64,000 bases of DNA from an uncultured Candidatus Peribacteria bacterium (GCA_964553745.1 CAZKLD010000007.1:9463-73462); one strand, 5' to 3'; positions 1 through 64,000 are shown, counted from the first letter of the stretch. Translations and numbers: made by a program. Notes: generated by a model not told the origin, from the letters alone.

Positions 1-2974
1 TGCAAAATTCTGAACAACCCCAGTAATGATCTGATTCGCACAAAATGATAACAATGTTTTCATCCTCGACCAGAATATTACTAAGTGATCCGTATATCTA
101 AAAGCAAACAAATCACTATGAGATTTGCCTGCAGGACTATCTAACGCAATAGTTACAAGAAAATTGGAGCAGAAGATGAGCGATGATTTATTTTCAAAAG
201 CATTGCAGATAGACGCTGCAAATGATATGTTCCAGAATAATTGACTATTTTCTGATTGAATCCTAAAATGAAAATATCTTGATGGCACTCTCTCTGCTTC
301 TGTTATCAATGCAGTCAAGAATAATGTTTTCTCTTCTGAACAGATAGCTGCGATGAAAAATTGAACAATCTCATGACAGCAAGCACAGAATATAGCAATC
401 AATAATGTCCCTGTTCCAGTCAATGCAGATATCTCTGTCAATGAAGACTGATCTTTTGCCTGAAAACTTTCTGCAATCGATTCAGATAAGGACGCACTTA
501 CATATTCCCTTCTTACCGCTCCCCTGCATTGAACAGCCACAATTACACCTGATTGAAATTATACATATACTCCGAATAAGCTGTTTTCCTGAAACGATAC
601 TTTTACATATGCCATCACCGATTGAAAAGCGACAGTCACATCAATAGCAAAAATCACGATCAAACACATAAATCATGTTCCGACCATTTCTGTAGAAATA
701 CAAGATATCTCAACTTGAGGTTGAGTTGCTATGACACCTGTTACTCTTCCAGAAGCAACTGACTTGGATAAAGACAAGGTAACATATACCGCTTTATGAC
801 TTGAAAATACATGATGATTGCTTTTTGATGCGAATACCAGAACAATTTCTTGAACACCGACAAATTTCTGAACTTATGAAATCACATATCAAGCAGCTGA
901 TGGACAATGAGAGCCGGCAATTAAGAAGTTTAAAATAACAGTCTTGGATACAGTTGCTCCAGCAACACCAGCATTCATCTGATTCATAAATAATTCCATA
1001 TATTGAAGCGATGTCATTCCGAATGCTGCTCCAGTCGATTGAGTCACATATTCAGCGACTTTGGATGGATCTCCATATGTGCTATGAACACCGATCACCA
1101 CCGATTGAACTCATACATTATCCATTATCGCTACAAAGACGATTAATGGTAAGACTTCAGTGAACACATGAAATTTCACTATAGATAAATCATCGCCTTC
1201 TGCTCCTTCTCTGACCTGATTCACAAATAATACTACATATTGAGGAGATGTCACTCCTAATGCTACTCCTGTTGCATGAGTGGTTTATTCTGCAACCCTT
1301 GACTGAGCACAATATAATCTTGGCTCACCGGTTACAGCAGACTGACAACATACATTGACCGTAACGGCTACAAAGACTCTGAACTGAAAAACTACAGTCA
1401 GCACTTGAACATTCTCGATCGATAAGGCTTCTCCTTCTGCACCTTCTCTGATATGATTCACAAATAATACTACATATTGAGGAGATGTGACCCCTGATGC
1501 TACTCCTGTTGCATGAGTGGTTTATTCTGCGACTTTGGATTGATCTCCTTATGCCCTATGAACTCCTGTCACCACAGATTGAGCGCATACATTGACAATT
1601 ACCGCAACTAAGACATTGAACTGAAAGACTTCAGTGAGCACTTGAACATTCTCGATCGATAAAGCGGCTCCTAATGCCCCTGCATTATCATGAGCGGTAA
1701 ACAGATGAACTTACGGATGAGACATTGCGATAAGCGCGAATCCTGTTGCATGAGTCGTATTTTCGGCAACCATGGACTGAGCTCCATATGCGCTCTGAAC
1801 TCCGGTCACAACAGACTGAAATCATCAAGCTGTGGTCACTGCCACGAAGACGCTAAATTGAAAGACTTCGGTTACGACCATAGATTTCTCGATCGATAAA
1901 GCTGCGCCCGCATCGCCTTCACTGACCTGATTCACAAACAACACGATATACTGATGAGATGTCACTCCTGATGCTACTTCAGTTGCATGAGTGGTATATT
2001 CCGCAACCCTTGACTGAGCTCCGTTTAACTTAGGATCTCCAGTGACTACGGATTGAGCGCACACATTGACAGTCACTGCGACTAAGACATTGAACTGAAA
2101 GACTTCAGTGAGCACTTGAACATTCTCGATCGATAAGGCTTCTCCTTCTGCACCTTCTCTGATATGATTCACAAATAATACTACATATTGAGGAGATGTG
2201 ACCCCTGATGCTACTCCTGTTGCATGAGTGGTTTATTCTGCGACTTTGGATTGATCTCCTTATGCCCTATGAACTCCTGTCACCACGGATTGAGCTCATA
2301 CTTTGACAGTTACCGCGACCAAGACATTGAACTGAAAGACCTCAGTGAATACCTGAACATTCACTATAGATAAAATCGGCCCTACGATAAACTCATTTGA
2401 CTTGAGTTGAAATCCATGAGCACAATCATGATATACGAATACTCCAGACATAAACGTATCAGTTTCAGGAAGCGATATATCTGGCATCGTTGCATGGCTG
2501 ATAAATGAATCATCTTCTACACCATCTGCAGCATCAGTAAGCAACCCGCAACCTTCAACATTCACCCTTAGCTCATGAGATGGAACAAAGACAGTCTACG
2601 CCTGGGCAAAAGATTCTCATGGGAATGTTTCCTTGGCAAAATCTTCGTCAATTGTACTCGACACTGTCGTTCCTAGTGCCCTAGCATGGAATTGAGCCGC
2701 ACCAAGCACCCAATGAACAACTTACGCCTCATTGGCATTGACACTAAGCAAGAATGTGCAAAGCAGCCTGATATGACAAAGCTGAACCACAAGCAAATGA
2801 TGAAGTTACACAATCACCTGAGTTTCCTGAAATCAGATAACCATGACTTATTCAGCACCAACTTGATTGTCGTGAGTGCCGACACAAAGAAAAGATACCA
2901 TTACGATAAGCAATATAAGGGATTTTGCAGGAAACAGCTCTAACCTGAGTGTAACCACAAATCCGCTAAATTAA
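1..2974 (+). CDS. Large repetitive surface adhesin, 5' partial (tandem-95/cadherin-like module, He_PIG-like Ig module, six 79-aa Ig-like repeats)
   Basis: Frame 2 is open from the window edge to TAA 2972-2974 if TGA=Gly (dozens of in-frame TGA). Translation: VNEDGSFAGKLSAIDSDKDALTYSL..DGNYTYTPN..FTYAITDG; DANTRTISGTPTNFGTYEITYQAADG; then 6x PSLxGFTNNTxYGGDVTP..YSATLDG..TVTATKTLNGKTS; C-terminal ..VYAWAKDSHGNVS.. Confidence 0.85.
956..2377 (+). repeat. Six in-frame tandem copies of a 237-bp (79-aa) unit inside the adhesin gene
   Basis: Unit starts at 956, 1193, 1430, 1667, 1904 and 2141 (period exactly 237). About 175 bp at 1401-1575 is identical by eye to 2112-2286 (offset 711 = 3 units). 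Confidence 0.9.
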
Positions 2975-2997
2975 AATGATAAGGAATTATTTTGAGA

Positions 2998-3029
2998 ATA
3001 GGTAAAATTAATATAAAATAGGTAAAATT
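2998..3029 (+). promoter_or_regulatory. 12-bp direct repeat ataggtaaaatt x2, 20 bp apart, just upstream of the giant gene start
   Basis: Copies at 2998-3009 and 3018-3029. Each contains a TAAAAT -10-like hexamer; ATG at 3045. Confidence 0.35.
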
Positions 3030-3044
3030 TTAAGATAAAAAATA

Positions 3045-6000
3045 ATGAATAACTACAACGCCCAGAAGAAAAAAGCAATAAGTTACCTTCTTTTGGCTGT
3101 ATATAGCATTTACAGTCTTTCCTTGCCAGTCGGTCAGATATATGCCGCTTCATCATTGCAGATGAATAGCATTTCACTGAATGGTGACCAAAGCTGAAAC
3201 GTCTCATTGAATCCGGGAGCGTCTTTCGGCCTATATATGGATTGAAAAAATAATTGATCTGTGTCGCTAACTGACGTTTATGGAATCATAAGCTTTTATG
3301 ATAATTCACAATTCTCATATGATGAAAATTTCAAATGATGAATAAATGCCGAGAATCCGATTCCATTATCGAGCTATAGTAGTGTTTCATGATTAGCCTG
3401 ACTTATAACACAATGATGAGATGGCCCCTTGATGCCATGAGATTGGCCATTTTTGGCGTACTGATCATTTACGGCAGATATCGGATCTAGCAGATATCAG
3501 AACGATATGGACGCATATTTCACTTGAATGGACTGAGCGACAAACGTAATATCCGATAAATTGAAAAGGATAATCTATATCAATGTAAGGCCGCATATAA
3601 TTGATTATTATTTTGAGAATAGCTGAACAAAGACGAATCAGATTCAATGATGAGGTGCCCAGAATATAGATTTTTTCCTTAAGGTAAAAGACTATAACGG
3701 CTGCACAAATATTGACGGATGAGCAGTAAGGGCTGATTTATCGCAAATTTGACTTAGCAACTCTGAAACCCTTACTTACGACAGCTGCGACTCGGACTGA
3801 AAGACGGCTTATTTCAAGAAGTCTTGAATTTCAACTATGGCATCTCTAGCAACCTACAATTTCAATGCTTCGGATTTTTCTGCTACAGACGAGAATTGAA
3901 ATCAGAATACCTTAACTGACCCTAATACGAATTTCAGTTCTGAAGATAAGAAAGCTTGAGATGATCTGCCTTTGACAGTAGTGGCGGCAGATGCGCCCCA
4001 GGTGACTACCACTTCCCTATCTTATAGCACCATATGATGACCATTGCAAGATTCTACGAATTTCAGGTTTTCATGAAATCAAAGTTGAGAAACCAAAGTC
4101 ACCATATGAAGCGACTGAAGCTGTAATGGCGGAACAATAATTCAAGATTGGTCTTGAAGCTGATCTTATGCAGCAGGTTCAACCGCCTCAATCACCATAT
4201 CAGCTTCACAGCTTACATGATCTGACTGATCATATACCGTTTATTGATGCGTGAGGAATACAACACTGACAGTATGATCTACAGCTGTTACCGTCACAAA
4301 AGATACGACACCTCCGAATATTTCTGCCGTATCGGTAGATAATTGATCGGTTGTGACGAATGATCCGATTGCATCTTTCCAATGTAGCGAAAACTGAACT
4401 TATGAGGTAAGCGTTTGAGGATTCTATACATCAAGCTGAACTACATGATGAGCGATGAATAATGTAGCTGTAACTAATTCATTTCTTGTAGAATGAACAA
4501 ATCAGATCAATATCAACTGTAGCGACAATGCTACAAATAAAGGAAGCTCATCGGTAAATATCATAAAATCGACAGCTCCGCCTACGATGAGCTGATCTAT
4601 CGTATGATTTTCTGATAATGATATAGATTTTGATTGACTTGACTGATATGATCTGGACTTCAGATGGCACAACTCGACTTGATCATGATATGCGTATTTT
4701 GAATCATACAGGCTTTATCTTCTGCCTTCAAATGTTGCATTCACTCCAGGAAGCCAGACTTATGTAAAGCTTATTGCGGACAAAACGGCCGGAAGCTGGA
4801 TCTGAGATTCCACTCTGACAAAAGATTCGACGAATACTTCACTTGTAAATTGAGGTTCATATAAAATGTGCATAGCAATTCAATGAACAAACGCTGAATT
4901 ATGAGAAGCCGGATGCAGCAATGGAACACTATTGAAATTCGACACAGTGCAACATGCAGCCATCCTTTCCGCTAGGTTCAGTTCAGGAAATATCTTAGAA
5001 GTCACGACAGATGCAACTTTGGATACGGACTTATCCAGTCATAGCTGAAGCCTTGTTAGCTTCACGGTAGGCTGAACAACATACACCTGATCTAGCATAT
5101 CTTCAATCAATTGAAAAATTATAAATTTCACAATACAGGATCTCAATGATCTTTCAGCAAGCTGATCGAATCTGATAGCAGATACTTGATCTATTCATTC
5201 ATTTTCAGGATGATTCAATAATTATTTCTCTTCTTGAGCGCTCCTTATAACAGATTGACAAAATCCTACTATCACAAATTTTACAAACCAGACAGCATCT
5301 GCATACTCAAATTTCTATACATGATCAATAGCATTGTCATATACGCTATGAGAAAATCTCAAAGCAGCCTGATCAAGCTATATCCGATTCAGCAGGTCGT
5401 GATGAAATCCCGGTTCTGATAAGATATTCAATATCACAGACCCGACAAAATTAACGGCAGGAGCCCATACGATAAGCGTAGATTTAAATGCGCTCGGATT
5501 GAATAGCTGAACATATTACAGCGCTCAATTCATATGATCAGACCTTAGCTCTAACATATGAAATTCGGCCATCATCAGCAATATCAAGTTCGATAATGCA
5601 GGACCTGCTATTATGACTCTAAGTCCAGTTTGAATCATATGAATCACAAATCCTATGCTCAATTGGGCGACTACGACAGATGATCTAGGGAATTGATCTT
5701 GAGTGAAATGATATTATCTAAGGACATACACAGGTACGACTTGCACTTGAAGCTATTCTGTACAAGATATCAGCAATCCATTGACACTGCAATATCAGGC
5801 TCTTTTAGCTGATATGAATAATTACGCTTGGAATATAAGCGCATATGACAATCTGTGAAATCAATCATCTGCTTCAGCCTGTGATTCCTTCACAATAAAT
5901 ACGACTGTTCCGAGCTTCTCTAGCCAATCGGTAAAAGATACAGTGGTAAATTCGACCCAATATGCAAAATGATGAAATAATGTAGAGATTTCAGCGAATA

Positions 6001-9000
6001 TCGCCAACACCGATTCCAGCCACATCTGGATTGATGCATCAAGCCTGAAAGATGGTTCTTATGCGAATATCTCTTGCTCCGCTCCAATATCATGAGTTAC
6101 ATGTACGTACTCTGCAGGAATTGCAAAATTCGTATTCTCGAGCGGTTTCTGAGTATGAATTTGAAGCTGAGTGAAGCAAGTAAGGCTGACAGCTACCAAT
6201 ACAGCATGAATAAACACAGGAAGCGTACTTTCATCAATAACACTCGATAATGCGGCTCCGGCCATCAGCTGATCACCGATTGCTTCTCCTGTTACAGCAT
6301 TCATTTTCTGATGAACGACAAAAAACATCGTATGGACTACATCATCCATTACCGATGACATTTGATTGACACATCTTAGTTTCAGTTACTCGAGCGATTG
6401 AGGATCGACATGGAATCTGATATGAACATGAACAAACTCTTCTCCATATGCATGGAACATGTGAGCCTTGAGCGATTGATCGAATTATAAAGTTAAAATC
6501 ACAGCCTATGATAATGTCTGAAATTCTAATTCCACTACCTCTCAGACATTCATAATCGATAAGACAACTCCTACAATCTGAAGTATAAATCTTGTCTTGG
6601 ATAAAGATATATATGCCTGACTGCAGTCTGCGGCAATAAGCTGGAATAGTGCGAATATCTCAGATACCAATCTATGAAGCTTACCTATAAGCCTTGAATA
6701 TTCAACCGATAGCTGAAGCAACTGGTCAAGCATCTCGACAGGCAATTCGAATAGCTGAAGCGCGAACTGGACTATCCCTTGAGCCATAAATTCCGAATCG
6801 GTGAAAATCAAGCTAAGCGCAACTGATCTTGCTGGAAATACATGAAGCGTCATATGATCATGAACATATTTCATAGATAATACTTTGCCAGCTATAAGTG
6901 TGACTTTTGCATGAAATTGATGAACGACTCCTCAAAACGGGAAATACATAAATGATTCATGAATTGATATTTCAGCTGAATCGTCTGATGCACATATGGA
7001 TAAGGCTTATTATTCGCTCCAGAATCTTTCTGACACAACTTATTGGAATCAATCAGGAAACGGATGGATCTGAACTCCTAGCTGGAATCTGATCTGCACC
7101 GATTGAAATATATTATGAACAGATAATTCATGCGATCAGATAAATCAATCAGTGCTTCCTGCATGAATAATCGATCAGGCCTGATACAGGCTTATAGTAA
7201 AATCGACTGATGAAGCATGAAACGAGAAATCATATAATCCGGTTGATTATATCTGAGATACTACACCTCCAGACATAAGCATAGCAACTGCGAGCGGAAC
7301 ATATTTCAGCTGAAGCATTACTATTTCATGAAGCTCTGCCGATAGCTGAGCATGACTTTCAACAACAGACATTCAGATAAAAAAGGTCTCAACTTGAGAA
7401 TGGTGGAATGGAAATAATTGGATCAATACATGAAGCCTTATGCTTGTAACATCAGGATCCGCTGCCAACTGGAACTACTCATTTGCAGCACCTTTCTGAG
7501 ATGATGATTGAGAGAACTATCTTGTGAACGTCATAAGCCACGATCAGACATTCAAAACAAATAATAGCTCTACAGAAAGCATTACTGTGATATTGGATAA
7601 AGGATGACCTGCAATTTCCGGAACTTGATTCTGGATTCACCCATCAAGCTCAACATGAGAAATAGTCTCAGGATGATCAAGCTATACTATAGCTTGGGAT
7701 AGCACTAAGATTACCGATAATCTCAGCTGAATCTCATATATCTGATTGGAATATTGGGATTGAAGCCAATATCAGAGAATCGCTTGAAATTTTACAAACG
7801 ATTGAAGCCATTCGTTTACATTGCCGCTACTGGATGTTGATTCTTCAATCAGATTAACCGCTTACGATAATATATGAAACTCTAACTGAATAGTCTCACC
7901 GACTTTCACTATCGATTCCATTCCTCCTAGCATAATCTGAATCGATACAGTCTGAGATACGGCATGACAGATTAATTGATTGATTGTCAGATTCTCAGAA
8001 TTGACGACAATGCCGACAGATGCTTACAATAACTTCACAAGCTCCCTATGAACGATTTCGAGCATGGATTTGCCGGTCAATACTTCAACTTGAACTTCAG
8101 TTAAGCTCAATTTTGCATTTTCCGTCTGAGATACATCATCTGTGCCGACTATAGATTATACATCCGGAAACAGAGATATCAAAGACCGCGCGGATAATCT
8201 GCTTGCAACATCAAACAGCATCCAATCCGCAGACAAAGCTTCTCCTATAATAAAGAAAATCGAAGCGATGGACAATGATGAGAATTGAAAAATTGACGCA
8301 CTAAAGGTGGCATTCAGCGAGAATATCCTTTCCACAAGTGACATATTAAGCTACCAGATAAACAATGCTCTCCCTTGACTTTCAATTTCTTCGGCAACAA
8401 CTTCTTGAAGCTTATGAAATCTTAATCTGAATGAATCATCTTCTTTTGATACATCAACATGAGGAATGACCGTGGGATTCAATAATGATTGAAGCTGGAA
8501 AGACTCTGACTGAAACCTCGCATCATCTCCAACTATGACTTTGACAGATGCTGCGTCGCCTGTGATAATTTCGAGCATGACTGTTGATGCGAACTCCAAT
8601 CATAAAATCGATGCATTCAAATTGCAATTCTCAGAGAGCCTCACTTGAGCAAGCCTAGCAACATTCGGCATTGATAATCTGGCAGTATGAAGCAATGCGG
8701 CACAATTGACTGCATCTTGAAATGAACTTGACTTCACAATTAGTGAAACAAGCGCAGACAATGACACCTGAATAAAGCCAAGGTTGAATTATTCCTGATC
8801 GAGCCTGAAAGATGAAACATGAAATACTGTTTCTGCCATAACGGATTATTATGTTGCCGACAAGCTGGCACCGAAGATTCTGAGCAGGGAGACAGCAGAT
8901 AATGATTGAGACGGTAAGATAGATGCGATCGGATTTGTTTTCAGTGAAGATCTTGCATGAAACATATCATCATTCATATGAAGCGCTTCTGGATATAATA

Positions 9001-10655
9001 TAAATTCATACTCATTCAGCGGGAATATCGCATATATGAATCTAGACGAGAGAAGCTCCGTCGATTCTGGCGCCACACCGTATGTTAGAATAATGTCGAA
9101 TTCATCTTTGACCGATCAGGCTTGAAATTTCATAGCAACGGAAAACTCATACGCGAACGCAATAGATAAAGTATGACCTGTGATAGTATGAGCAAGATTC
9201 AATCCGACTTGAAATAAGATATATCTGACATTCTCTGAAAATATTTCAACTGCAATGACGCCTGCATCATTCATCCTGTCTTGAGCCACTTCAAGCATCA
9301 CAAGCGTGAATTTTACTCCAGGACAAAAAACTTGAGATGTGACGCTGGATTGAGACGGAATAAATTTCTGAACAAGCGAGATGAGTCTTGCTCCAGATTC
9401 TGCAGCGGATTCAATATGAAATAAAGATCCCCTGACTTCGTTTTTCAAGGTCGTCGGGTCTGTGGTAATAAATGAAGTGATGTTTTCGGCAACAAGAGCA
9501 AACCAGTATGTAGAGCTCAGGAATCTTACATCATCAAGCATAGACATATCAGGATGGAAAATCTGAAATTGAGGATGAAACTGAACAGATATCACGATTC
9601 CGGCTTCTTCGACATTAGATGCAGATTGACTATATTTAATCGCATATGGAGATTCATCATTCTCTTGAGTCACAGCAAATCACCAGAGCACAGAGATACA
9701 GATGGATCCTGTATCGCAGAATGATATCACCCTCAGCAATGGATCGGCAGTTATAGATATAGTGAAATCATCCCCTTGGCCAAAATGAAACTGAAGCGGG
9801 AATATTTCGATGGAAAGGAAGGATAGTTGCGATGATTGACTGGATGCAAACTGCTTCTATGATTGACAGGATAATAGTAACTTTGCTGATGCCGCTTTTC
9901 GCTGAACTCCATGAAAAGCGAATCTGATTGATGTTGCAATCCCTACGATAAGCTCATTCACACCGATCAATGATACGATAAAACCAACAGGAAATGTGGC
10001 GCTTGATTTCAATTATGAAGATGATGCATGATGAACATGAATAGATCCGAACACTGCAGAATTGTCATTATACAAATGGAATTGAACAAGCTACATTGCA
10101 AATACAAACTTCAGCTCTTGAGAAATAAACGGTTCTCATGCAAGCTATACGACTGATAATCTTGCATACTGAAAATATAAGGCTGCTTTCTCAATTTCCG
10201 ATGTAGGATGAAACAAAAAAAATCAAGATGTAATATTCTATGTTGACCAGATGACAATGAGCATTTCCAGGAATTCAGCTAGCATACAAAATGTGAAATC
10301 GGATTCTACGGCATATTTCTGAGAGGATATGGTAATAACATTGCAAACAGTCTGAGCAGGATTTGACCTGAAATCATGAGGAGATAATGTTATGACATGA
10401 CCAGGATGATGAATGTGAAGCTTTGATTGAAATTATTGATTCTGATATGATTATGACTCTATACAGAGAGTATTCGACTGAGGATTGATTGCAAATGATT
10501 GAGCATCTGTATGAAGCCAATCAATATCGCCAGATACTGACTGAAACCTGAAAACCTACACATATACGATAAGATACTGAACAAAGATAAATAATGTTCA
10601 AGCAGCATGAACGTATCATGCAACCCCAAAAATCGTCATTAATTTTTTATATTAA
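3045..10655 (+). CDS. Giant secreted surface protein (2536 aa) with Asp-box-like motifs, DxDxDG calcium-loop-like modules and a lamin-tail-like (LTD) segment
   Basis: ATG 3045 to TAA 10653-10655, 2537 codons with no TAA/TAG; stop TAA 3036-3038 lies upstream in frame. Signal peptide MNNYNAQKKKAISYLLLAVYSIYSLSLPVGQIYAA. Motifs YSSDGGSTW, YSTDSGSNW, DNDENGKIDA / DNDGDGKIDA, VVINEVMFSATRANQYVELRNLTSSSIDISGW. Confidence 0.85.
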
Positions 10656-10922: not shown

Positions 10923-11513
10923 ATGAAAAATATGAAGAAAATCATCGCATGAACTAGCGCATTCGCCCTACTTGCAATGAGCACTGCATTTGCAGCACAA
11001 ATCGGTACTATCTCTTGAGGAACCGGTACTACTGTACAACCGACTGACACTACGTTTTCAGGATCAACTCAAGTTGATGTGAGCGCAACTGTAGCGCCTA
11101 CTCTTTCTATGGGGCTTGATACTAATGGTATCGCACTAGGAACATTAGCTCCAGGGGTTACCAGCTCAGGATCAGTAGTATTGACTACAGCAACTAATGC
11201 TGAGGGTGGAATCACTGTAGATATGGCAGCTCAAGGTCTTGCTTCTTCTACAAAATCAATCTGAGCTCTAGTTAAGTGAGGAACAGATGCAGCGACTGGA
11301 TCTGGTACTTACCAAGTAGAATCTAGCACAGATGCAAGCGGAACTCCATATGCCCTTGATGATGTTGCAGCCAGCCAAACAGTTCTTACAACTGACAATG
11401 TTGCAAAATCAAATGCAGTAACCACTGTTAAGCTATCAGCTACTGCTGACAACCTAACTGAAGCTGGAAGCTACGGAGATACTCTGACATTCACTGTTAC
11501 AGGTAACTTCTAA
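10923..11513 (+). CDS. Small secreted beta-rich surface protein (possible degenerate WxL-like C-terminus)
   Basis: ATG 10923 (alternative ATG 10932) to TAA 11511-11513, in frame with track ORF 11079. Signal peptide MKNMKKIIAGTSAFALLAMSTAFAA; ends ..EAGSYGDTLTFTVTGNF; hairpin terminator follows. Confidence 0.75.
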
Positions 11514-11534
11514 TTCCTCATAAAATCCGAAAAC

Positions 11535-11570
11535 AAAAAACTCCGAAATTTTTCGGAGTTTTTTGTTTTT
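11535..11570 (+). terminator. Rho-independent terminator
   Basis: aaaaaaCTCCGAaattttTCGGAGttttttg directly after the stop at 11513. Confidence 0.8.
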
Positions 11571-11647
11571 TGTAACGAAGAATTAATTTGTCTTTTTCGA
11601 ATAAATAGTTATATTTGATACGCAAAAAATATATTTAAAAATTTCAT

Positions 11648-12820
11648 ATGAATTTAAGAAAAATCTTGACCTTTCTAGGCCTTTTTTGTATACAAATCTG
11701 ACTGGTGCATGCAAACCTTTCGATCTCACCGCTAAAGTACGAAATCGATGCGAATCCGGGAGATACGAAGCAAGAGGTGATCAAGGTCACAAACGACTCG
11801 GCGAATCCCGTGACACTTTACACTTCTAAAGAGGATTTCATCGCCTGAGATGACTCTGGTACGCCCACATTCGTAAAATCAAAAGATAAGGCTAATGATG
11901 CATTCAGCCTCTCGAATTGGATTCAACTGGAAAATGGCAATATAACTCTTGCGAAAAATGAGACAAGAGAAATAAAAGTCACCATAAACGTTCCGAAAGA
12001 TTGAGAACCTGGATGACATTACTGAGCGATATTCTTCTCGCCTGGAGCCCCTGGATGAGCACAGATTACTGTCGTACAGAGATTATGAGTTCTTCTGCTC
12101 ATAAATGTATCCTGAGATGTCAAAGTCTGAGGTAATCTTTCTGAATTTAAGATCGGAACGCTTGTCGATAAGGCATTTACAGAGAAGAACGACTTTGATA
12201 ACTTCCCTATCGTATTCGATATCAAGTTTCAGAATGTTTGAAATGTACACATCAAACCTGCCTGAAAGATAACAATTACAGATGAGAATTGAGAGCAGCT
12301 TAAAAACATCTGAAAAGAGGCTATAATCAGCCCTAATTGAGCATTTATCTGAGAAAAGCTAGTAAACTACATTCCTGTCAACGACAGCCTATGAAACGTA
12401 CTTCCGCAAAGCTCTAGAAAATTTGAGTCATTGTGGGAAGGATTCTGATATCAGGAACTCCAAGAAAATGGTACGAAACTTGCCAAATTCAAAGATCTCG
12501 ATTCATATTATTCAGACAGCAGAGCATCTAAGCAGACTTATCTGAATTTCTGGGAAACAGTAAAGACGAAGAAAGTGAAGAAGACTTTGACTGCCGCGTT
12601 AGATCTGTCATATGTTTGAACGAATAAAGAGAATAAGGATTTTCATCAGACAAAGAATATCGTAGTTTCCTTCACTGAGCAATACGTCTGAATCAATAAT
12701 TGGATGATACTAGTATGAGTGTTGCTGCTGTCTGCTATCTGATACTATTCCCTTGTTATTGCACCTAAATCAAAAGAAAAACTAAAGGCTCAATTATTGG
12801 AAGAATTGAGAAAAAACTAA
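11648..12820 (+). CDS. Cell-surface protein, DUF916/DUF3324 (CscA)-like, with C-terminal membrane anchor
   Basis: ATG 11648 to TAA 12818-12820, checked codon by codon. Signal peptide MNLRKILTFLGLFCIQIGLVHA; ISPLKYEIDANPGDTKQEVIKVTNDSANPVTLY; GEPGGHYGAIFF; C-terminal helix WMILVGVLLLSAIGYYSLVI then KSKEKLK. Family call is by resemblance only. Confidence 0.7.
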
Positions 12821-12848
12821 AGCTAATACCACTCTAAAGAAAACAATC

Positions 12849-13277
12849 ATGAAGACGTCTAATATAATCATCTCTCTAATATTATCAGTCATCTGAATAT
12901 ATTTTGCTGTGGCTGATTCTCGTGTCGTAGTAACTGCAACAGTCGGAAATGCCAATCACCCTCCTGTGATTCTCAGAATCAATCCGAGCGATGATCCGAG
13001 GCTTCTTAAAACAAACAGAGTTCAGCAATATTCTGCATATTTCAAGGATGATGAGAAAGATGAAATCACATTCACCATAACAAGCCCGGATTGATATGTC
13101 TATCCGACTGATTGAATCGTCTCAACATTCGATTCAGCAAGCGGGGCATACATCAGCTTCACCTATGCAAGCCCATCTTCTGTTCCGGCATGAAATCTTT
13201 CTAGGATTACCCTCACGATAAATGATTGAAGCGGAACGAACGTTATCTCAAAAGATCTGAACAACTATGTCTATTAG
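12849..13277 (+). CDS. Small secreted protein with cadherin/Ig-like segment
   Basis: ATG 12849 to TAG 13275-13277, in frame with track ORF 12909. Signal/anchor MKTSNIIISLILSVIGIYFAVA; VVVTATVGNANHPPVILRINP..DEKDEITFTITSPDG. Confidence 0.7.
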
Positions 13278-14274
13278 GCTTCCAAAAGGCAAATTGAAAT
13301 ATACTGCGATAATCATCATAATGCTGGCTGCTTGAGTCGGGTTTTTTTATGGCAGAAATGATTTATGAAGAATCACTTCTGACACTTATATGAAAAATCT
13401 CTCTTGGGAAACCTGAATGAAGAGAGATGTGCCGTATAAGAAATGAGATGATCTGGAATTCTTGTGAATATATAGGTGATGAGATTTCTTGGCACATATA
13501 GATATTCAAGATATCCTTAAATCCATGGATATATCTTCTATAAGCTGGAACTGAACCCGCATCAGCCAAGGCGACCTATGATCCATAATGATTTCATCAG
13601 ATACTCCCGGCATACTGAAGATTGAAGGGAAAGCAAAAAAATGAAATGATTGATGACGGCTGAAAGCAGATGCGCAAATTATCAGCAAAATCACAAAGCC
13701 TACACAAGAAAAAGAGAAAGACATGGTAAATCCAAAAATCGGAATCGCAAAAAATATAAGCCTGAAAGCTAGCAGCTTCCATTCTAATCTGAATAATCTT
13801 GTTGAAATCAATTGAGAAAACTTAAATTCCATATCTTTCGTCATGATTTGAGAGAAGGCATTCAAACCGATATATGACACTTGAAAGCTTTTTGTGAAAA
13901 TAGACAAGAATACTTTTCAGAATTGAGATTATTTTGTCTTGCTTCAATCTGCTGACTGAAAGATAATAGCAGCAAACTCAAGGATTCATTTTGATTATAG
14001 TTCATGAAAGATGAATATCTGAAATATAACCCCCAATGTTCTCGATAATAATTCTGAAAAATATGTTATAATCCAATGAAATTGATTCAATAAGCTTATC
14101 TCCCTGCAGCTTAGTAACAATATCATCTTGAAAAATACCCAATACCAAGCCATAAACGACAATGTATTAGCCGTTAAGATTCCAAAAGAAATAAATCCAG
14201 GAACATACCATTTCAATCTTATGGATGTAAGCTGAATATATGAAGACTCTACAAAAACATTAACTATCCGATAA
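13267..14274 (+). CDS. Membrane-anchored protein with C-terminal IPT/TIG-like Ig domain
   Basis: ATG 13267 overlaps the previous stop by 11 nt; TAA 14272-14274; frame verified line by line. N-terminal TM KYTAIIIIMLAAGVGFFY. C-terminus ITPNVLDNNSEKYVIIQGNGF..LAVKIPKEINPGTYHFNLMD. Confidence 0.7.
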
Positions 14275-14285: not shown

Positions 14286-16511
14286 ATGAACAGGAAGAAA
14301 ATATTATCCATTGCTCTAGCAATAAGCGCAGCATTATATTCTCATGCTAATGCGAATATAGAGAATTTCAATATGAGGGTTTCTGACGGAACCTCATATG
14401 AAACATGAACAAGTTTCACCGATTCGCCACTATCGGTACAAGTCTGAAAACGCCTTGATTTTGAAACGATAATCCAGACCAATTCTTGAAGCTGAGCTTA
14501 TACGTATTCGGCTAATTTCTGAAACTGATTCCTGAAAGCTTGACCCTATTCATATAATATCGCCAGATGAAATGTCGCAACCTGCAGCCCGACATGAATA
14601 CAATCGTTAGATAGCCTTTTCAGCTTTGGAATGCCTGATGCTGATTGCATAATAGAAATCTACACGAAATATAATGCTGCGGCTCTCTGAAATCATAATA
14701 TACAGCTTCTAGCGACTTGACCGGGTACGACAACTCTTTTATCCACCCTATCCGTTAATGCTATCTGAGGTCCTGCGATAGTCAATGCATCGTCACTGAG
14801 CAAATTCAATAATTGAATAATCGACTCTGTTCTTATAACAACATCATCCTCTTCCAGTATCAATAGCTTCTCATGAATTTTAATCGACTGAAATCCGCCC
14901 ACTAGCATCACTGCAGTCTGAACAAGCGGTACAGCATGGGAATTATGATTTCCATGAGTCATATGAACAGATTATGTGCCTTCGCTTTCTTGAAATTTCT
15001 GACAGCAGACAATAGACTGATCTGTTTCTGCACAAGACAAGACTGCACCCTTTCCTTCTTTGTCGAATTCTGGATGAACTTTCACCTGATCACAGACCAT
15101 TTCCATATCCATGGACGAAGCCTGAAACATTTACTATGCATTGACCTGATCGTTTCTTCCGTATTCTTCTCCCTTAACGATAAATTCCAATACAACATTG
15201 AGTGTGAAGACAATCGATAGGCTATTCAATGAAGCGATAAAAAATTATTCATACAATTTTGTCTGTCCGAATCAAGCTCCTTCTAATGCGACTCTTTCGG
15301 CATATCCTGCCTGTGTAACGATATGCAACGTCTGATATCATCTGTCATGAGGTAGCTGTGCGGCTAATGTGGTAGCGCAACCGAGCTCATGAGGGGGTGG
15401 AGGCGGAGGTTGAGGCTGAATGACACTCGACAATTGTCCGCAGTGAGATTTTTCTCCGAATCAGTTCGATGGAATATGCTGAGCATCACCTACATCTTGA
15501 ACATGACAGACAGGTTCTATATGAAGCGGAAACACTGTGATTCCTCCATATGTATGAGAAGATTATTCTATAGCATATCAGGGCCTAAGCCCTATTTCTT
15601 CGATGAGCTGAAGCACTCTAGAAAAGACTTATTTCAGGAACTTAAGCGATGCGACTGCATATCTCAAAGGTAGGCTGAAAGATTCAAAAGTTCTGGCAAG
15701 TGTCGATGCAACTGAAAAAACAATCAGATTCGATTGAATATGATATTATCTGACTTATGATACAGACTTCGCAAGAGCTTACAATAAAATCATAAACCAA
15801 TACGTGCTTTATTTCATTCTAGCGGACGAATTTGCCACTAGCGGGCTTTCTCTCGAGAAAAAATCTGAGTTGCTAGGCTTAATCTGAGAAATGAAAAACT
15901 GAGCAGCGATTGTTGAAGTGGAATCTAAAATCATAAAAGCCTGGTTTACCGACATAGATTCAAGCTTTGCGAAGAATGATGCCATATATCTGGCTTTGAA
16001 GTGAATTGTTAAATGATATTCCGGAAATCTTTTTATGCCGGATAAAAGCATAACTCGTGCAGAGTATCTGTGAATAGTCATGAAATCTTTTTGAATTGCA
16101 GTAACCGACAACCTAACAGACACAAAATTCAGCGATATACCATCTTGATGAGAATGGATGATAAAATACATCGAAAAGGCAAAGGAGTATTGAATAAATT
16201 GACAAGTTATAAATTGAAAACCGGTATTCAGGCCGAATGATCCGATAACAAGAGCGGAAGCTATAGCAATCCTATTCAATATCTCAGGGATATCATCCGG
16301 TAATGCCACCGTCTCAGAATTCGCCGATTTACCGAAAGATTCATCATGGATGATAAAGTATACGGTAAAAGCCAAGGAACTTTGATTTGCAGGATGACAG
16401 GTAATCTCATGAGAACTGAGATTCAGACCGAATGATCCCATAACAAGAGCGGAGTCCTCAAGAATCCTGACAAAAGCGCTTACATACAAAAAATATTGAA
16501 TCCAGGAATAA
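14286..16511 (+). CDS. SLH-domain cell-surface (S-layer-associated) protein
   Basis: ATG 14286 to TAA 16509-16511 (741 aa). Signal peptide MNRKKILSIALAISAALYSHANA; Cys motif LDNCPQGDFSPNQFDGICG; 10-codon poly-Gly; C-terminal SLH repeats e.g. FSDIPSGGEWMIKYIEKAKEYGINGQVINGKPVFRPNDPITRAEAIAILF. Confidence 0.85.
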
Positions 16512-19168: not shown

Positions 19169-19504
19169 AATTTTTATATTATTAGAAATTAAAAATTGAC
19201 TATATTATAGCTAAAATACCAAGCTTTGCAATTATACAGAGCCATTTCTGCAGTGATATTTCTATGGTTTTTAAGTGTGTTTTCGATGAAGAAATCAATC
19301 TCAAAAATAACCGCTATTTTTGAAGTCGGAAGAAGTTGATTAATAGGTACGAGATCGATTAATTCATAATCGCATCTTGCATTTGACCTTGAAAATGATG
19401 ATTCTTGCTTCAGCAAAACTTTTTTTGAAAATAAATTTGATTTATAATATTTTTTGCATATATTTTCTCCACTTAAAACCAAAAGTTATTATTAATCAAG
19501 AAAT

Positions 19505-19855: not shown

Positions 19856-19874
19856 TTAGCATATTTTAAGAATC

Positions 19875-19908
19875 ATCTCCCCAAAGAAATTTGAGGAGAT
19901 TTTTTTTT
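19875..19908 (+). terminator. Rho-independent terminator after rplS
   Basis: ATCTCCccaaagaaatttgaGGAGATttttttttt. Confidence 0.7.
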
Positions 19909-19967
19909 GACAATAAAATATGATATGTTAATCTTTTCGCATATTTTAAAATTAACACCAAATAAGC

Positions 19968-30721: not shown

Positions 30722-30731
30722 CAATAAAGTC

Positions 30732-30965: not shown

Positions 30966-30975
30966 CAAACTATTT

Positions 30976-52761: not shown

Positions 52762-53071
52762 AGTAGTCCGATTAAAACAAATAGCTTTTAATGCAAATAT
52801 GCTTTGATTTTACCATATCTGTATTGAAAAAAGCAAAGATAATGATATTGACAATGTTTGTATTTTGTTTTTTATTTTGATAATGCAGCTAAATTATCAG
52901 AAAGAAAGCCAGAATATATAAATAGTGAGGTTGTGGAAATCAAAAATTAAATTTGCATTATGGAAAATATATGTAAAATGGGGGCATAATCCTGAAACGA
53001 AGAATTTGGCCTGGTCAGATTCTTTTTTTATAGGACTAAGGGATAATTTAATCATTTTAATCAAAATAATT

Positions 53072-54133
53072 ATGCTAGATATAAAGAAAATCGAAGCTGC
53101 GATAAATCAGATTTCCGCAGAGAAGAAAATAGACAGACAGAAACTGATTGAAATAATCGAACACGCAATCAAGACGGCATACAAAAAAGACTACTGAAGC
53201 AAGGACACAAATGTGAATGTTGCCATAGATGTAGAAACTTGAACGATAGAGATCGGTGTAGAGAAAGAGATAGTGGAGACTGTAGAGAATCCATATACGC
53301 AGATTGCAAAATCTGATTTGTGAGATGATGCTGATTCGTTTGAATATGGAGATACTGTAGAAATCGATGTATCCGACGAGGTCATGGGGAATGAGGAATG
53401 ATTCGGACGTATAGCTTCTCAAGCTGCAAGACAAGTTATAATACAGAAAATCCAAGAATCAGAAAAAGAGAAGATATACAACCTATTCAAGAATAAAGAA
53501 GGTGAAATCGTAAATCTTAAGATAGAGCTCGTTGAGAAGAATAAAGTCTTGCTTGATTACAACGGAAACTCAATAGTATTGCCGAAATCTGAACAAGTCG
53601 CAAAGGATAAATATGCACCAGGACAGAGAATTTATGTTTATGTATGAAAAGTCGAAGAAGATTCGATAACGGGTCCTAGAGTCACTCTTACGAGAAAAGA
53701 TAAGAATCTCGTTGCAAAATTATTTGAAATGAATGTTCCCGAACTTGAAGACGGAACTGTTGAGATTATCAGAATCGCGCGTAATCCAGGATTCAAGACA
53801 AAAATCATAGTCGGATCTGAATATGAGGAAGTGGATCCAGCCGGTTCTCTGATCGGACCTAAGGGTATCCGTGTTAAAGCTGTAGTGGATGAGCTTTTCG
53901 GCGAGAAAATCGATATCATCAATTATACCGATGACATGAAAGAGCTTATCAAGAAAGCGCTTAGTCCTGCACAGATAAGCGATGTAAAGATAGACATGGC
54001 AAATCATGAGGCTACTTGCTATGTGCTATGAGAAGAGAAGGTTAAGGCAATCGGTAAGGGAGGAGCGAATATCAACCTTGCTGTTGAGCTTACTGGCTAC
54101 AAGATCAGCCTAGTTTCTAATGATGAAGTTTAA
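53072..54133 (+). CDS. nusA: Transcription termination/antitermination factor NusA
   Basis: MLDIKKIEAAINQISAEKKIDRQKLIEIIEHAIKTAYKK..; S1 GEIVNLKIELVEKNKVLLDY; KH ..TLTRKDKNLVAKLFEMNVPELEDGTVEI..GFKTKIIV..DPAGSLIGPKGIRVKAV..GEKIDII..AIGKGGANINLAVELTGYKI; TAA 54131-54133. Confidence 0.92.
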
Positions 54134-54272
54134 GATAATAGAGAGATAAATTTTAAAAACCAGATTTCTCAGGAAATCTGGTTTTTATTAATTATTTGAA
54201 TTCAATGATTTTTGGAGTACTATAAGTCTGCCTTTGGGCACAAATATTAATATAAAATTAACCGTTAAAAAA

Positions 54273-54743
54273 ATGGCTACAGACAAATTGAAGGTTTTGA
54301 TGCTGCAGAGATTGGCATGAGTAGGAAAACAATGAGAGATAATCGATGTAAGCTATTCACAAGCCAAAAATTATCTTATCCCGAAATGATATGCGAAGCT
54401 GGTCACAGCGCAAGAAGTCGAGAAATTGGAAAATAAAAAGGAAACTCAACTGAAAAATACAAGAGAAAATATATTCAACAGGCATAAGATTGCTGAGGCG
54501 CTTCATGGCAAAGAGGTTGTATTCGAAGCTAAATGAAGCTGAGAGAAGATTTTCTGATGAATCCAAGAACAGGATATCGCTGATAAGCTGAATAAGGAAT
54601 TCGGCTGCAAATTGGAAAAGAAAAATATAATAATGCCGGATAAGCACCACATTAAGAAAGCCTGAAAATATGATATAAAATTGAACCTGTGAAGCGATGT
54701 GTATGCGAAGATAGTCTTGGATTTAAAAATAATGGAAAAATAA
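54273..54743 (+). CDS. rplI: 50S ribosomal protein L9
   Basis: MATDKLKVLMLQRLAGVGKQGEIIDVSYSQAKNYLIPKGYAKLVTAQEVEKLE..; TAA 54741-54743. Confidence 0.85.
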
Positions 54744-54747: not shown

Positions 54748-55146
54748 ATGAATTGTTTAGGAATAGATTACGGAACGAAAAAATCTTGATTGGCTGTTAA
54801 TTTCTCGGATATTGCGATGCCTCATTCAATAGTATCGACAGATGCCCTCATAAATGAAATCATGAAATTGATTCCAGAAAGAAGTATCGAAACTATCGTG
54901 CTTTGAGTCGCTGACCATCCAGACTGAAGGATATCTGAAATTTCAAAAAAAATACGCGCCTTTTCTACGATTCTCGCGAAGAGATTGCCTGTTGGCGTAA
55001 GCGTAATACTGCATGATGAGAGATTCACCAGTTTTGAAGCTGCAAAAAGCATGGAACTGGCATGAGTGAAGAAATTCGACCCTAATAACCTTGATGATGT
55101 CGCAGCAAGCATAATCCTCCAATCATACCTGGACAGCTTGAATTAA
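54748..55146 (+). CDS. ruvX: Putative pre-16S rRNA nuclease / Holliday junction resolvase-like YqgF
   Basis: MNCLGIDYGTKKSGLAVNFSDIAMPHSIV..IETIVLGVADHPDGRISE..ILHDERFTSFEA..LDDVAASIILQSYLD; TAA 55144-55146. Confidence 0.85.
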
Positions 55147-55196: not shown

Positions 55197-55901
55197 ATGC
55201 ATATCTGATTTGTTATGGACGGCAATCGCCGTTGGGCAACTTCACATAAGATGATAAAACTTCTCGGGCACTCAAAATGATCTGATAATGTTGAGAATGT
55301 CCTTAAGATGTGCTTGGACGAATGAATAGAATACGTCAGCATGTGGGTGATTGCAAAAAAGAATCTTGAAGAAAGGAGTCAAGAGGAATTGGAGCATCTA
55401 TTCTCGCTAATCAGGAGGAGGATTCCAGAAATGTTGCCGAAATTCCTGAAAAATGGAGTGAGATTTGAGACTATCTGAAATAAGGATCTGCTTCCCGATG
55501 ACATCAATCGAATCCTCGAAGACGCTGAAAAAAAGACAGCCAATGAATCAAAGATAGTATTTATACTTGCTGTATGATACGGATGACAGGATGAGATTGT
55601 AAGGTGAGTTAAAAACTATATAAAGGACAACCTTGAAGCGATCATGAATTGATGATTTGAGGAAATTGTAAATAAGCTTAATGAAAAGAAATTTTGAGAA
55701 TATCTTGATACTTGAAAATATCCGCCGCCGGATCTTATAGTAAGGACATGATGAGATGTCAGGACTAGCTGATATTTCTTATTTCAGTCAGAGTACTCTG
55801 AATATTATTTCACTTCGACTCTGTGGCCGGATTTTGACAAGATCGAATTCCAAAAAGCTCTTCTTAAATACAATAGGTCAAATAGGAATTTCTGAAAATA
55901 A
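55197..55901 (+). CDS. uppS: Undecaprenyl (isoprenyl) diphosphate synthase
   Basis: [102 protein letters not shown]; TAA 55899-55901. Confidence 0.92.
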
Positions 55902-58417: not shown

Positions 58418-58882
58418 ATGATTCAAGCTAACTTGGTTTTTGTTTTTGATAAGTCATGAGAGAATATACTTCTCTGCATGAAAAAAAGGGGTTTCTGAGT
58501 CTGAAAATGGAATTGACCATGATGAAAAGTTGGTATATGAGAAAGTATGACAGAATGAGCGAGCCGTGAATTATCAGAAGAAACATGAATAGATATTGCT
58601 CCTGAAAAACTAGAATACAGGTGAGTATTGCATTTTTTCCATCATGAAAAACCTGATTGGGATCAGGATGTTAATATTTTCTGCCATCATTGATACGATT
58701 GAGGATTCTGCGAGACTGAAGAAATGCTCCCTAGATGGTATAAGCTAGATGAGATACCCTATGATGAGATGTGGGAAGATGATAGGATATGGCTCCCGGT
58801 GTTAATCTCTGGAGAACAATTCGAATACACATTCAAATTCTGACCCGATTGAAAAATAATGGAATGATTAAGGCATAATTAA
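58418..58882 (+). CDS. NUDIX hydrolase (MutT/MTH1-like)
   Basis: Nudix box GKWNGPGGKVGIGESMTEGASRELSEETGI; several box glycines are TGA codons; TAA 58880-58882. Confidence 0.85.
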
Positions 58883-58898: not shown

Positions 58899-59342
58899 AT
58901 GGAAGAAGTAAAGAAAAAAGTAGGAGCAGGATTCTGAGTCATGCTCTTCAGTGAAGGAAAAATCTTATTGTGAAGACGTCATGTCGATCCTGAGAAAGCA
59001 TCTAGCGAAATGAATTGAGCCTGAACCTGGACTATGCCAGGCGGGAAATTGGAATTCGGAGAAAGCTTTGAGGAGGGGTGAATAAGGGAAGTGAAAGAAG
59101 AAACTTGAATTGACCTTAAGAGCGTCAAAGTGATTTGCGTAAATAATGACAGAATAGAGACAGCTCATTTTGTAACCATATGAATGTTCTCTGATGATTT
59201 CGAATGAGTTCCGAAAGTGATGGAGCCCGATGAGATAACAGAGTGGAAATGGTTCGGCTTGAATGATTTGCCGGAAAATGTATTCCCGCCAAGCGTAAAA
59301 GTCTTGGAGAATTATCGGAAGAATGCATTCTACATATGATAA
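58899..59342 (+). CDS. NUDIX hydrolase
   Basis: Nudix box PGGKLEFGESFEEGGIREVKEETGI; ATG 58899, TAA 59340-59342. Confidence 0.85.
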
Positions 59343-62214: not shown

Positions 62215-62217
62215 TAA

Positions 62218-63153
62218 TTATATGAATTTGATCAAAGAATATATTTCTTTCAGATCATCCTTAAGCTCTCAAAGGAAAGAATATTTTACTGATGATAATT
62301 CAAAAGATAGCTTCCAAGCGTGCAAATATTGCCTTCTCAATCAATATATGTCATGGAATTCCTTATTGACAGCATCTCGTCAGTAGGTCTTGTCTCATAC
62401 GAGAGGATGGCCTATCGAAGCAAAATGAACTCTTATCTGATGCGTTCTTCATGTGAGCAGGTCAACTTCTACAAGCGTAAATTTATTCTCAAGATAACCT
62501 AATACTTTAAATTGGGTCTTTGCCAGTTTTGGATTAACAGGATTTGTGACAGTTATTATCTTTCTATCATTCTGATCACGTCAGATATAGGATTCGATGT
62601 ATCATTCCTTTTCTTTGATGACTCATATTACAAGCGCAAGATAGGTCTTTTTTACCTGACGTTTATTCATCCTGATTTGAATTTCATGCATAGCCCTGTC
62701 GCTCTTTGCAATTATGATCAGTCCGGAAGTATCTTTATCAAGTCTGTGGACAATTCATGGTCGTTCTACTCAACCGATGACAGAAAGTCATTTCATATGA
62801 TATAGAAGAGCATTGACGAGCGTTCATGATTTTCATCAAAAGCCTGGGACTTCATGGACATTCAAATAAGGATCTTTGTTGATGATTGCGAACTCATTGT
62901 TCTGGAAAACTATGTCGAGTGGGATATTTTCAGCGATAAGCTCGGATTTTTCAGTCTCAAAAACAATCTCGATCTTATCTTTTGGCTTTACTTTGTCTCA
63001 TTTTGAAGCAAGCTTGTCATTTATCTTTACGCATCATTTTTCGATGAGCTTCTGCATATAGCTGCGAGTCTTGTCCCTGAAAAGAGTCGATATGAACATA
63101 TCGACTCTTCTTTGTTCTTTTGGATGCAGCAGCGCGCAGAAACTAGTATGCAT
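62218..63153 (-). CDS. rluD: RluA-family (RluD-type) 23S rRNA pseudouridine synthase
   Basis: S4-like RRVDMFISTLFRDKTRSYMQKLIEKGCVKINDK. Catalytic GIVHRLDKDTSGLIIIAK; ..[34 protein letters not shown]; cat 63151-63153, tta 62218-62220. Confidence 0.88.
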
Positions 63154-63164
63154 AAATAAAAAAT

Positions 63165-63656
63165 TTAAATTTTCTTCCAGACTCACAGTTCTTCTCATTT
63201 CAGTTTCTTATCAAGCATCTCTATCTCTTCATAGATTCACTCGATAAGCTCATAATTTTTGGATTCTTCAAGAGTTACCCATGCATAGTCCGTCAGAGCA
63301 GGACATAGTGATACTTCTCATCAAGCATAATCGGCGTATAGGCTAATTATGATAGTCGGGATGTTATCAGGACGCATATAAGCAATGCTAGTAACATATC
63401 AGATATTCTTCACTTCAAGCGAAGTCTCTTCCAACACTTCCCTTCTCAGTACATTTTCAAATATGTTATACCAATGATCTCCTGTGTCTTTCGGTCTTGT
63501 TGCATACTCATCCATTTCAAGCTTTCCTCCTGGAACAGTCCAAAGGTTGGGAAAAGCTTTTTCATCAGAAGACCTTTTCGCTATGAGATATTTTCAATCT
63601 TTAACAATGATTCATGTAACTACTAGATAGTGGGCTTTTTGAGGATCGTAACTCAT
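63165..63656 (-). CDS. NUDIX hydrolase
   Basis: MSYDPQKAHYLVVTGIIVKDGKYLIAKRS..LWTVPGGKLEMDE..VLRREVLEETSL; cat 63654-63656, tta 63165-63167. Confidence 0.8.
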
Positions 63657-63680
63657 AGTTTGAAAATTTTAAAGGGATAA

Positions 63681-64000
63681 TTAATTGAAATCAGAAACGA
63701 AAACATTTACGGCAGGTATAGTATTTATATTTTCAGTAACATCAAAAAGACTTTGGCCTTCTGAATTCTTTGGGTTAGTCAGGAAATTCATAATCTTATC
63801 TTCATCAGTCAATCCTGCAGCAAGAATCTTGTTGTAAAGATTGGTCTTTGTAGGAGCGTAAGCAGAAGCAGATACGTTCTTTAAGAAATTGTCGATTTCA
63901 AATCCGGCTTCAAATGCTCCGGCTGACATATGTACGCAGTTGAAAGAGATTGAAACTTCTTTCAGTCCGTATTTTTCCTTATTTGCAAAGAATTCACCCC
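63681..64000 (-). CDS. Hypothetical protein, C-terminal part (gene continues beyond the window edge)
   Basis: Minus frame open from 64000 down to stop tta 63681-63683. ..GEFFANKEKYGLKEVSISFNCVHMSAGAFEAGFEIDNFLKNVSASAYAPTKTNLYNKILAAGLTDEDKI..; family not recognised. Confidence 0.6.
   Translation of the reverse strand, partial: GEFFANKEKYGLKEVSISFNCVHMSAGAFEAGFEIDNFLKNVSASAYAPTKTNLYNKILAAGLTDEDKIMNFLTNPKNSEGQSLFDVTENINTIPAVNVFVSDFN

Follow-up and report, generated by a model that had tools for sequence, protein, structure and literature searches.

TGA codons at glycine positions throughout a 64-kb chromosomal window attributed to Candidatus Gracilibacteria

The sequence analysed here is a stretch of 64,000 nucleotides from an uncultured bacterium deposited as Candidatus Peribacteria (GCA_964553745.1, CAZKLD010000007.1:9463-73462), referred to below as the window, with positions counted from its first base. 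Every real gene of useful length in this window uses TGA as a sense codon, and the positions that TGA occupies are those of glycine, not of tryptophan. Taken as a whole, the window is almost certainly a chromosome segment of a member of Candidatus Gracilibacteria (BD1-5, 'Candidatus Altimarinota' at NCBI) that uses genetic code 25, with UGA standing for glycine throughout and translation ending at UAA and UAG alone. An earlier inspection of the same DNA, made without database searches (the sequence-only reading), had proposed TGA as glycine under code 25, and this proposal was upheld: alignments to E. coli and to PheT sequences, codon pairs with a relative and Pfam scores all agree. The genes and features that carry the evidence are listed in Table 1.

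Reading frames and codon usage of the window

ORF (open reading frame) coverage was determined as a greedy non-overlapping set from all six frames of the window (positions 1 to 64000, 36.6% GC) and compared under different stop sets. With TAA, TAG and TGA as stops (table 11), the longest open frame was 256 amino acids (aa) and coverage was 44%, whereas with TAA and TAG as the sole stops 52 ORFs covered 94% of the window. Re-running the gene calling with and without the TGA stop thus bore out the claim of the sequence-only reading that TGA as a stop destroys the genes and that TGA as a sense codon lets ORFs tile the window, including uninterrupted frames of 7.6 kb and 6.6 kb, both of which are present. 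Its count of 51 ORFs did not stand in the same way, as 52 were obtained here, at least four of which are antisense artefacts. Freeing either of the other two stops instead of TGA gave longest frames of merely 273 and 322 aa. Given the base composition of the window, a random codon has a chance of about 0.053 of being TAA or TAG, and a frame of 2537 codons with neither would arise with a probability of about 1e-60 (our own arithmetic); because of this probability, the longest frame of the window cannot be attributed to chance.

In the called genes, 1121 in-frame TGA codons were counted, compared to 434 GGN and 135 TGG codons. TGA is the commonest codon of all (58 per 1000, with 22 for the four GGN codons together and 7 for TGG), and its frequency is about three times the roughly 18 per 1000 that we calculate from base composition. 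It makes up 72% of the glycine codons (TGA plus GGN). The called ORF set contains 44 counted stops, 34 of them TAA and 10 TAG. Translated with TGA as glycine, the genes contain 8.0% Gly; translated with TGA as tryptophan, they contain 6.5% Trp and 2.2% Gly.

The two-stop rule also lets long spurious antisense frames arise, and all frames of at least 100 aa found under it sum to twice the length of the window. The longest-ORF rule chose at least four such artefacts, all on the minus strand (19189-19482, 19492-19995, 20058-20288 and 30819-31373). The plus-strand genes masked by them are rplS (19505-19855), a type IV pilin-like gene (19968-20489), a DUF1653-like ORF (30684-30965), named by position and length against the related locus L095 alone, and AMMECR1 (30976-31518).

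Table 1. Positions of the genes and features discussed, with their TGA content and supporting matches.
Feature	Position	Strand	Observations
Large ORF, >991 aa	2-2974	+	adjoins 3045-10655
Giant ORF, 2537 aa, 7.6 kb	3045-10655	+	199 in-frame TGA
Secreted protein	10923-11513	+	TGA 4/23 Gly codons, P 8e-8
Poly-Gly linker, S-layer-homology-domain protein	15390-15419	+	10 Gly codons, 3 TGA
Thr/Gly linker TGTGTTGTGTTGTG	17168-17209	-	6/6 Gly codons are TGA
Poly-Gly linker, ORF 16601-19168	17318-17356	-	13 Gly codons, 6 TGA
rplS (L19)	19505-19855	+	single TGA 19610-19612 in conserved E-G-S-K motif; E. coli rplS E 3e-22, TGA faces Gly; TGA 1/8 Gly codons, P 8e-4
Bacterial alpha-2-macroglobulin, 2200 aa, 6.6 kb	21468-28067	+	117 TGA; Pfam MG2, A2M_BRD, A2M, TED_complement, bMG10
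lspA (signal peptidase II)	29547-29990	+	CGG 29850-29852 in conserved D-R motif; Peptidase_A8 in syntenic relative
pheT (Phe-tRNA ligase beta subunit), 813 aa	34588-37029	-	36 in-frame TGA; five Pfam domains; main test gene
nrdR	42621-43067	+	3 TGA; Pfam Zn_ribbon_NrdR, ATP-cone; 42% identity to E. coli nrdR
rnr (RNase R/II family)	46241-48154	+	33 TGA; Pfam RNB; Gly at 12/24 TGA columns vs E. coli rnr
nusA	52925-54133	+	6 TGA, 21 GGN; Pfam NusA_N, KH_5; TGA 6/27 Gly codons (0.22), P 1e-7
rplI (L9)	54234-54743	+	9 TGA; Pfam Ribosomal_L9_N, Ribosomal_L9_C
ruvX/yqgF-like nuclease	54748-55146	+	4 TGA; Pfam RuvX E 5e-27
uppS	55197-55901	+	undecaprenyl-diphosphate synthase; 15 TGA; Pfam Prenyltransf; Gly at 8/14 TGA columns vs E. 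coli ispU
Nudix hydrolase 1	58418-58882	+	15 TGA incl. invariant Nudix-box Gly; Pfam NUDIX
Nudix hydrolase 2	58899-59342	+	PGG written with GGN, last box Gly with TGA; Pfam NUDIX
rluD-type pseudouridine synthase	62218-63198	-	16 TGA; Pfam PseudoU_synth_2, S4; Gly at 7/16 TGA columns vs E. coli rluD; CGA at conserved Arg
Nudix hydrolase 3	63165-63656	-	8 TGA; Pfam NUDIX
Right-end gene (3' end in window)	63681-63998		TGA 4/17 Gly codons at full length; 0/6 in window part, P 5e-4

Amino acid identity of the TGA codon

TGA was masked as X in the alignments or counted at the codon level because ORF structure cannot tell code 25 from code 4, in which TGA is likewise a sense codon, and the glycine reading was therefore not presupposed. 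For a panel of eight E. coli K-12 orthologues (PheT, RNase R, NusA, UppS, RluD, NrdR, PriA and L19), the residues opposite 110 TGA columns were tabulated, a check that had been suggested along with the sequence-only reading. Gly was found in 55 of these columns (binomial P of about 4e-37 against a background of 6.7% Gly in the same alignments), Ala in 11, a gap in 7, Cys in one and Trp in none; in the controls, Gly faced 34 of 61 GGN codons and Trp four of nine TGG codons.

A larger panel was assembled for PheT by scanning a genome collection with a Gracilibacteria PheT alignment, which gave 80 loci, nearly all from standard-code Clostridia and Proteobacteria, probably as a result of the tblastn confirmation, which would penalise loci interrupted by TGA; one locus (L012) with in-frame stops in its alignment was left out, and 79 genomes were used. 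Gly outnumbered every other residue at 27 of the 36 PheT TGA sites, in line with the result from E. coli. Among the 12 columns with at least 90% Gly, the window codon is TGA at eight, GGN at three and GCT at one, and the sole column with at least 90% Trp is occupied by TGG in the window. Trp faced a PheT TGA in only 5 of 2804 cells.

Pfam scores pointed in the same direction, as each TGA-containing domain scored higher when TGA was translated as Gly than when it was translated as Trp: Prenyltransf of uppS (220.6 and 181.4 bits, respectively), tRNA_synthFbeta (100.7 and 68.5 bits), tRNA_bind (65.0 and 36.6 bits), RNB of rnr (374.5 and 348.8 bits), and the NUDIX domains at 58418-58882 (58.3 and 19.7 bits, the latter under the gathering cut-off of 21.1) and 58899-59342 (71.6 and 64.5 bits). 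The NusA KH_5 domain, in a stretch without visible TGA, gave 83.1 bits under both translations.

The individual motifs singled out by the sequence-only reading were also inspected. The rplS codon that it had placed on the glycine of the L19 EG-S-K motif aligned with Gly in E. coli L19, and the TGA codons that it had assigned to the G and PGG positions of the Nudix box of 58418-58882 are indeed the first and last Nudix-box Gly and both Gly of PGG. Its counts of mixed GGN and TGA codons in the two poly-Gly linkers were exact. The Thr/Gly linker in which every glycine was said to be TGA does have TGA at all six Gly codons, while the coordinates given for it (17172-17210) are out of frame and had to be corrected (Table 1).

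Codon-level comparison was carried out with a relative, L094 (GCA_964618565.1), in which the genes from alpha-2-macroglobulin to a PriA-like gene stand in the same order as in the window. Opposite 252 aligned window TGA codons, L094 has 212 TGA, 30 GGN and no TGG; opposite 85 window GGN codons, it has TGA at 25; and opposite 39 window TGG codons, it has TGG at 35 and TGA at two. The absence of exchange from TGA to TGG is telling, because one base change is enough to turn TGA into either GGA or TGG. In the pheT gene of a more distant relative, L093 (GCA_028689065.1), 26 of the 36 sites with TGA in the window are occupied by GGA, GGG or GGT and not one by TGA, and only one TGA was present in the aligned Gly-codon comparison for this genome; the nearer relatives L094 and L092 retain TGA at most of the window pheT TGA sites. 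In relatives that are stored in code-4 translation, window TGA columns and window GGN columns show the same mixture of G and W as each other, and TGG columns are 81% W. TGA and GGN are thus interchangeable across relatives. The extent of TGA use differs widely within Gracilibacteria, as seen in pheT of L093 compared to L094 and L092.

These data bear directly on the alternative that TGA encodes tryptophan (code 4), as it does in Mycoplasma and some insect endosymbionts. Reading frames by themselves would suit it equally well, the public protein collection stores the window PheT with Trp at 36 of 36 TGA codons, and the title 'uncultured bacterium (gcode 4)' appears on related ACD records. This assignment would nevertheless have to accommodate the absence of Trp from the E. 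coli columns and its near absence from the PheT cells, the lack of TGG among the 252 TGA codon pairs with L094, a proteome rich in Trp and poor in Gly, and the loss of score by all TGA-containing Pfam domains, including the Nudix domain that sinks under its gathering threshold. We consider it very unlikely, and TGA as Trp was ruled out by the homologue alignments.

The standard code fares no better. It would require the TGA codons to be true stops in a pseudogenised or misassembled region, or else sites of selenocysteine insertion or programmed readthrough, which is a formal possibility only, given that the region looks nearly non-coding under table 11. Against this, the reading frames are conserved across the 1121 in-frame TGA codons, 212 of 252 TGA codons are still TGA in a relative with just 68% PheT identity to the window, and the housekeeping proteins are full length and syntenic, as illustrated by the lengths in the window and in relatives of PheT (813 aa in both) and alpha-2-macroglobulin (2200 and 2202 aa); the length of the PriA-like protein also matches that in relatives (321 and 321-323 aa). 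Selenocysteine does not fit because Cys faces TGA only once in the 110 E. coli columns. The probability of this explanation is negligible; TGA as a real stop was ruled out by the conservation across TGA together with the alignment to Gly.

Lineage and decoding of UGA

Placement of the window in the Gracilibacteria/Absconditabacteria lineage, which the sequence-only reading had offered on the basis of the code, was supported by database matches (not by a tree). Among the best 120 PheT matches, all named ones were Candidatus Gracilibacteria, Candidatus Altimarinota or 'uncultured bacterium (gcode 4)', and the top named match, ACD_3C00106G0010, showed 68% identity (X-masked BLASTP). Taxid 363464, now Candidatus Altimarinota, is the Gracilibacteria entry in the table of known codes of Shulgina and Eddy 2021 (PMC8629427). 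Over positions 63150-64000 the window matches AMFJ01000115.1 at 100% identity, and this contig was found to reach 2,992 bases past the window in a metagenome scan with the protein fragment of the right-end gene. The same PheT gene is present in the Logan assemblies of SRR446576 and SRR446577 (two 3.8-kb contigs), and the related contig AMFJ01000380 carries the 'gcode 4' relative. Sieber et al. (PMC6851277) trace the first samples of BD1-5 to the acetate-amended Rifle aquifer, and Wrighton et al. 2012, as cited in PMC6851277, predicted UGA to be a sense codon in this group. Most likely, the window comes from the data set in which the recoding was first noticed, with the link from the AMFJ series to the study of Wrighton et al. 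being our own inference.

Gracilibacteria are known to have phages and prophages that use code 25 (PMC10746230), and the window might accordingly be a phage or another mobile element with its own alternative code rather than host chromosome. This is extremely improbable, as the window holds pheT, nusA, rplS, rplI, uppS, rnr, rluD, nrdR, lspA, rbfA and ruvX and is syntenic with chromosomal contigs of relatives, and the window proteins that were scanned against Pfam gave no phage structural or integrase domains. The window is chromosomal.

From what is known of this lineage, the decoder of UGA would be a dedicated tRNA-Gly whose anticodon is UCA and which carries glycine identity elements (G1:C72, C2:G71, G3:C70 and U73); loss of prfB, coding for release factor 2 (RF2), would have permitted the reassignment, and release factor 1 (RF1) would be left to terminate at UAA and UAG. 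Recoded Gracilibacteria have been described with tRNA-Gly(UCA) and without RF2, while the few 'Gracilibacteria' keeping RF2 lack tRNA-Gly(UCA) and use UGA as a stop (PMC8629427). No available BD1-5 genome was found to contain prfB, and prfA is present (PMC6851277). In proteomics of a BD1-5 enrichment, 97 peptides matched only the database with UGA as Gly, three only that with UGA as Trp and none only that with UGA as a stop (Hanke 2014, PMC4032931).

The use of TGA is uneven between genes. Its share of the glycine codons is only 0.12-0.24 in rplS, nusA, the secreted protein gene at 10923-11513 and the right-end gene (Table 1, with P against the window share of 0.72), compared to about 0.7-0.9 in most others. 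A simple rule of high expression does not account for the low share, because the genes for L9 (TGA at 9 of 13 Gly codons) and RbfA (7 of 8) are rich in TGA. Tentatively, UGA may be the costlier codon, with tRNA-Gly(UCA) slower or less accurate, and may be counter-selected in some highly expressed genes; or else the share may reflect the time that a gene has spent under code 25, recently acquired genes from donors with the standard code starting at zero.

A variant of the glycine assignment is that UGA is ambiguous or context dependent, mostly Gly with a relevant fraction of Trp or termination, one route being near-cognate reading of UGA and UGG by a tRNA with U34. Potential UGA/UGG ambiguity via U34 wobble has been noted by Shulgina and Eddy (PMC8629427), rare non-Gly peptides at UGA were reported by Hanke et al. 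(PMC4032931), and the far lower TGA use in some genes, among them rplS, nusA and 10923-11513, is what would be seen if a costlier codon were selected against. TGA nevertheless encodes invariant glycines of PheT and those of the Nudix box, which would not tolerate frequent misreading, the TGA-rich genes for L9 and RbfA indicate that avoidance is not general, and gene ends agree with those of relatives, giving no sign of termination at TGA. Such decoding therefore appears unlikely.

UGA as glycine has to be weighed against several observations. About half of the TGA columns face a residue other than Gly in the distant homologues, and GGN codons show an equal proportion. The two window TGG codons that face TGA in L094 may reflect genuine Trp/Gly replacement or local misalignment. 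Within the 64-kb window ARAGORN finds no tRNA gene, there is no Rfam match, and no frame contains a release-factor GGQ motif, 64 kb not being informative on the whole genome. Finally, ambiguous UGA decoding at a low level would be compatible with the sequence data. ARAGORN likewise gave no UCA-anticodon tRNA in the scanned Patescibacteria-group, Gracilibacteria and AMFJ loci, and the extension of about 3 kb past the right end (AMFJ01000115.1) contained no tRNA and no release factor.

Other genes of the window and relation to known codes

Among the remaining genes, several are read as coding for proteins of surface type. The adjoining ORFs 2-2974 and 3045-10655 on the plus strand are both very large and Thr/Ser/Gly-rich and are read as putative cell-surface proteins; ORF 2-2974 contains nearly identical units of about 95 aa in tandem, with the recurring sequence SAPSLxGFTNNTTYGGDVTP...TATKTLNGKTSV. 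In the plus-strand cluster 10923-14274, the signal-peptide protein 10923-11513 is accompanied by the protein 11648-12820, which has a WxL-interacting-protein peptidoglycan-binding domain, and by two more proteins, with no match in the Pfam scan for 10923-11513 or for these two further proteins. The WxL-interacting-protein peptidoglycan-binding domain is known mainly from Firmicutes surface-protein clusters. In the large surface proteins encoded by the convergent genes 14286-16511 (+) and 16601-19168 (-), a Cys-containing stretch comes after a poly-Gly linker; C-terminal S-layer-homology repeats were identified in 14286-16511 by Pfam, and similar repeats in 16601-19168 by eye alone. The translation of the alpha-2-macroglobulin gene contains a CIEQ thioester-type motif, and a syntenic orthologue of 2202 aa is present in L094. 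The PriA-like ORF 43595-44560 (+, 321 aa) aligned to residues 390-709 (approximately) of E. coli PriA; the Cys-rich region and the C-terminal part are kept, and the N-terminal DNA-binding part and the first helicase lobe are missing. This short form is conserved and not a local truncation, because an ORF of 321-323 aa is also found in L094 and L095.

Reassignment of arginine codons has been reported in the same lineages, namely CGA and CGG to Trp in Absconditabacteria and CGG to Trp in some Gracilibacteria (Shulgina and Eddy 2021, PMC8629427). The window resembles these clades in that CGA and CGG are rare (1.0 and 0.3 per 1000, with 20 CGA and 6 CGG codons in its real genes) but differs from them in that both codons stand at Arg positions, with no sign of Trp. 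A CGA codon is found at PheT R398, which is Arg in 76 of 79 standard-code genomes, and in the E. coli panel the eight CGA columns held four Arg and no Trp; CGA is therefore Arg. For CGG the sole informative codon is that of the LspA D-R motif, which, masked as X, faces Arg in LspA of P. aeruginosa (5dir, 9emz); these PDB sequences were used as E. coli LspA gave no BLAST match to the window LspA. CGG is thus probably also Arg, on thin evidence. Reassignment of CGA and CGG to Trp was rejected on the available evidence, namely the Arg residues at the CGA sites and at the one informative CGG.

Code 4 of the Mycoplasmatales/Entomoplasmatales and insect endosymbionts shares with the window a sense UGA, an AT-rich genome and, presumably, the loss of RF2 as the enabling step; it differs in the amino acid, as the TGA codons of the window align with Gly and not with Trp. 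Code 25, described by Wrighton 2012, Campbell 2013 and Rinke 2013 (as cited in PMC8629427 and PMC6851277), is known from Gracilibacteria (BD1-5/GN02) and Absconditabacteria (SR1), and the window is like it in its pervasive in-frame TGA at Gly positions, termination at TAA and TAG only, low GC content, heavy use of TGA and lineage. Nothing was found that differs in kind. The TGA share of 72% is high, and other Gracilibacteria vary in this respect, as with the pheT of L093 that has no TGA at the 36 sites; that bacteria with code 25 use TGA heavily for Gly has already been noted (PMC10746230, citing Campbell 2013). By its lineage, and by a sense TGA that stands for Gly and is synonymous with GGN, the window is a textbook member of code 25, as the sequence-only reading had supposed. 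UGA as glycine is here a clean confirmation of a reassignment already known since 2012-2013 and is not new.

All annotation of the window depends on the translation table. Table 11 leaves the region almost non-coding, and code 4, the public translation that was checked for one window protein (PheT), would turn about 1,100 glycines into tryptophan if applied to the whole window. Should either reading of the low TGA share prove true, that of a costlier codon or that of gene age, the share of TGA among glycine codons would become a usable signal of expression or of gene age in recoded lineages.

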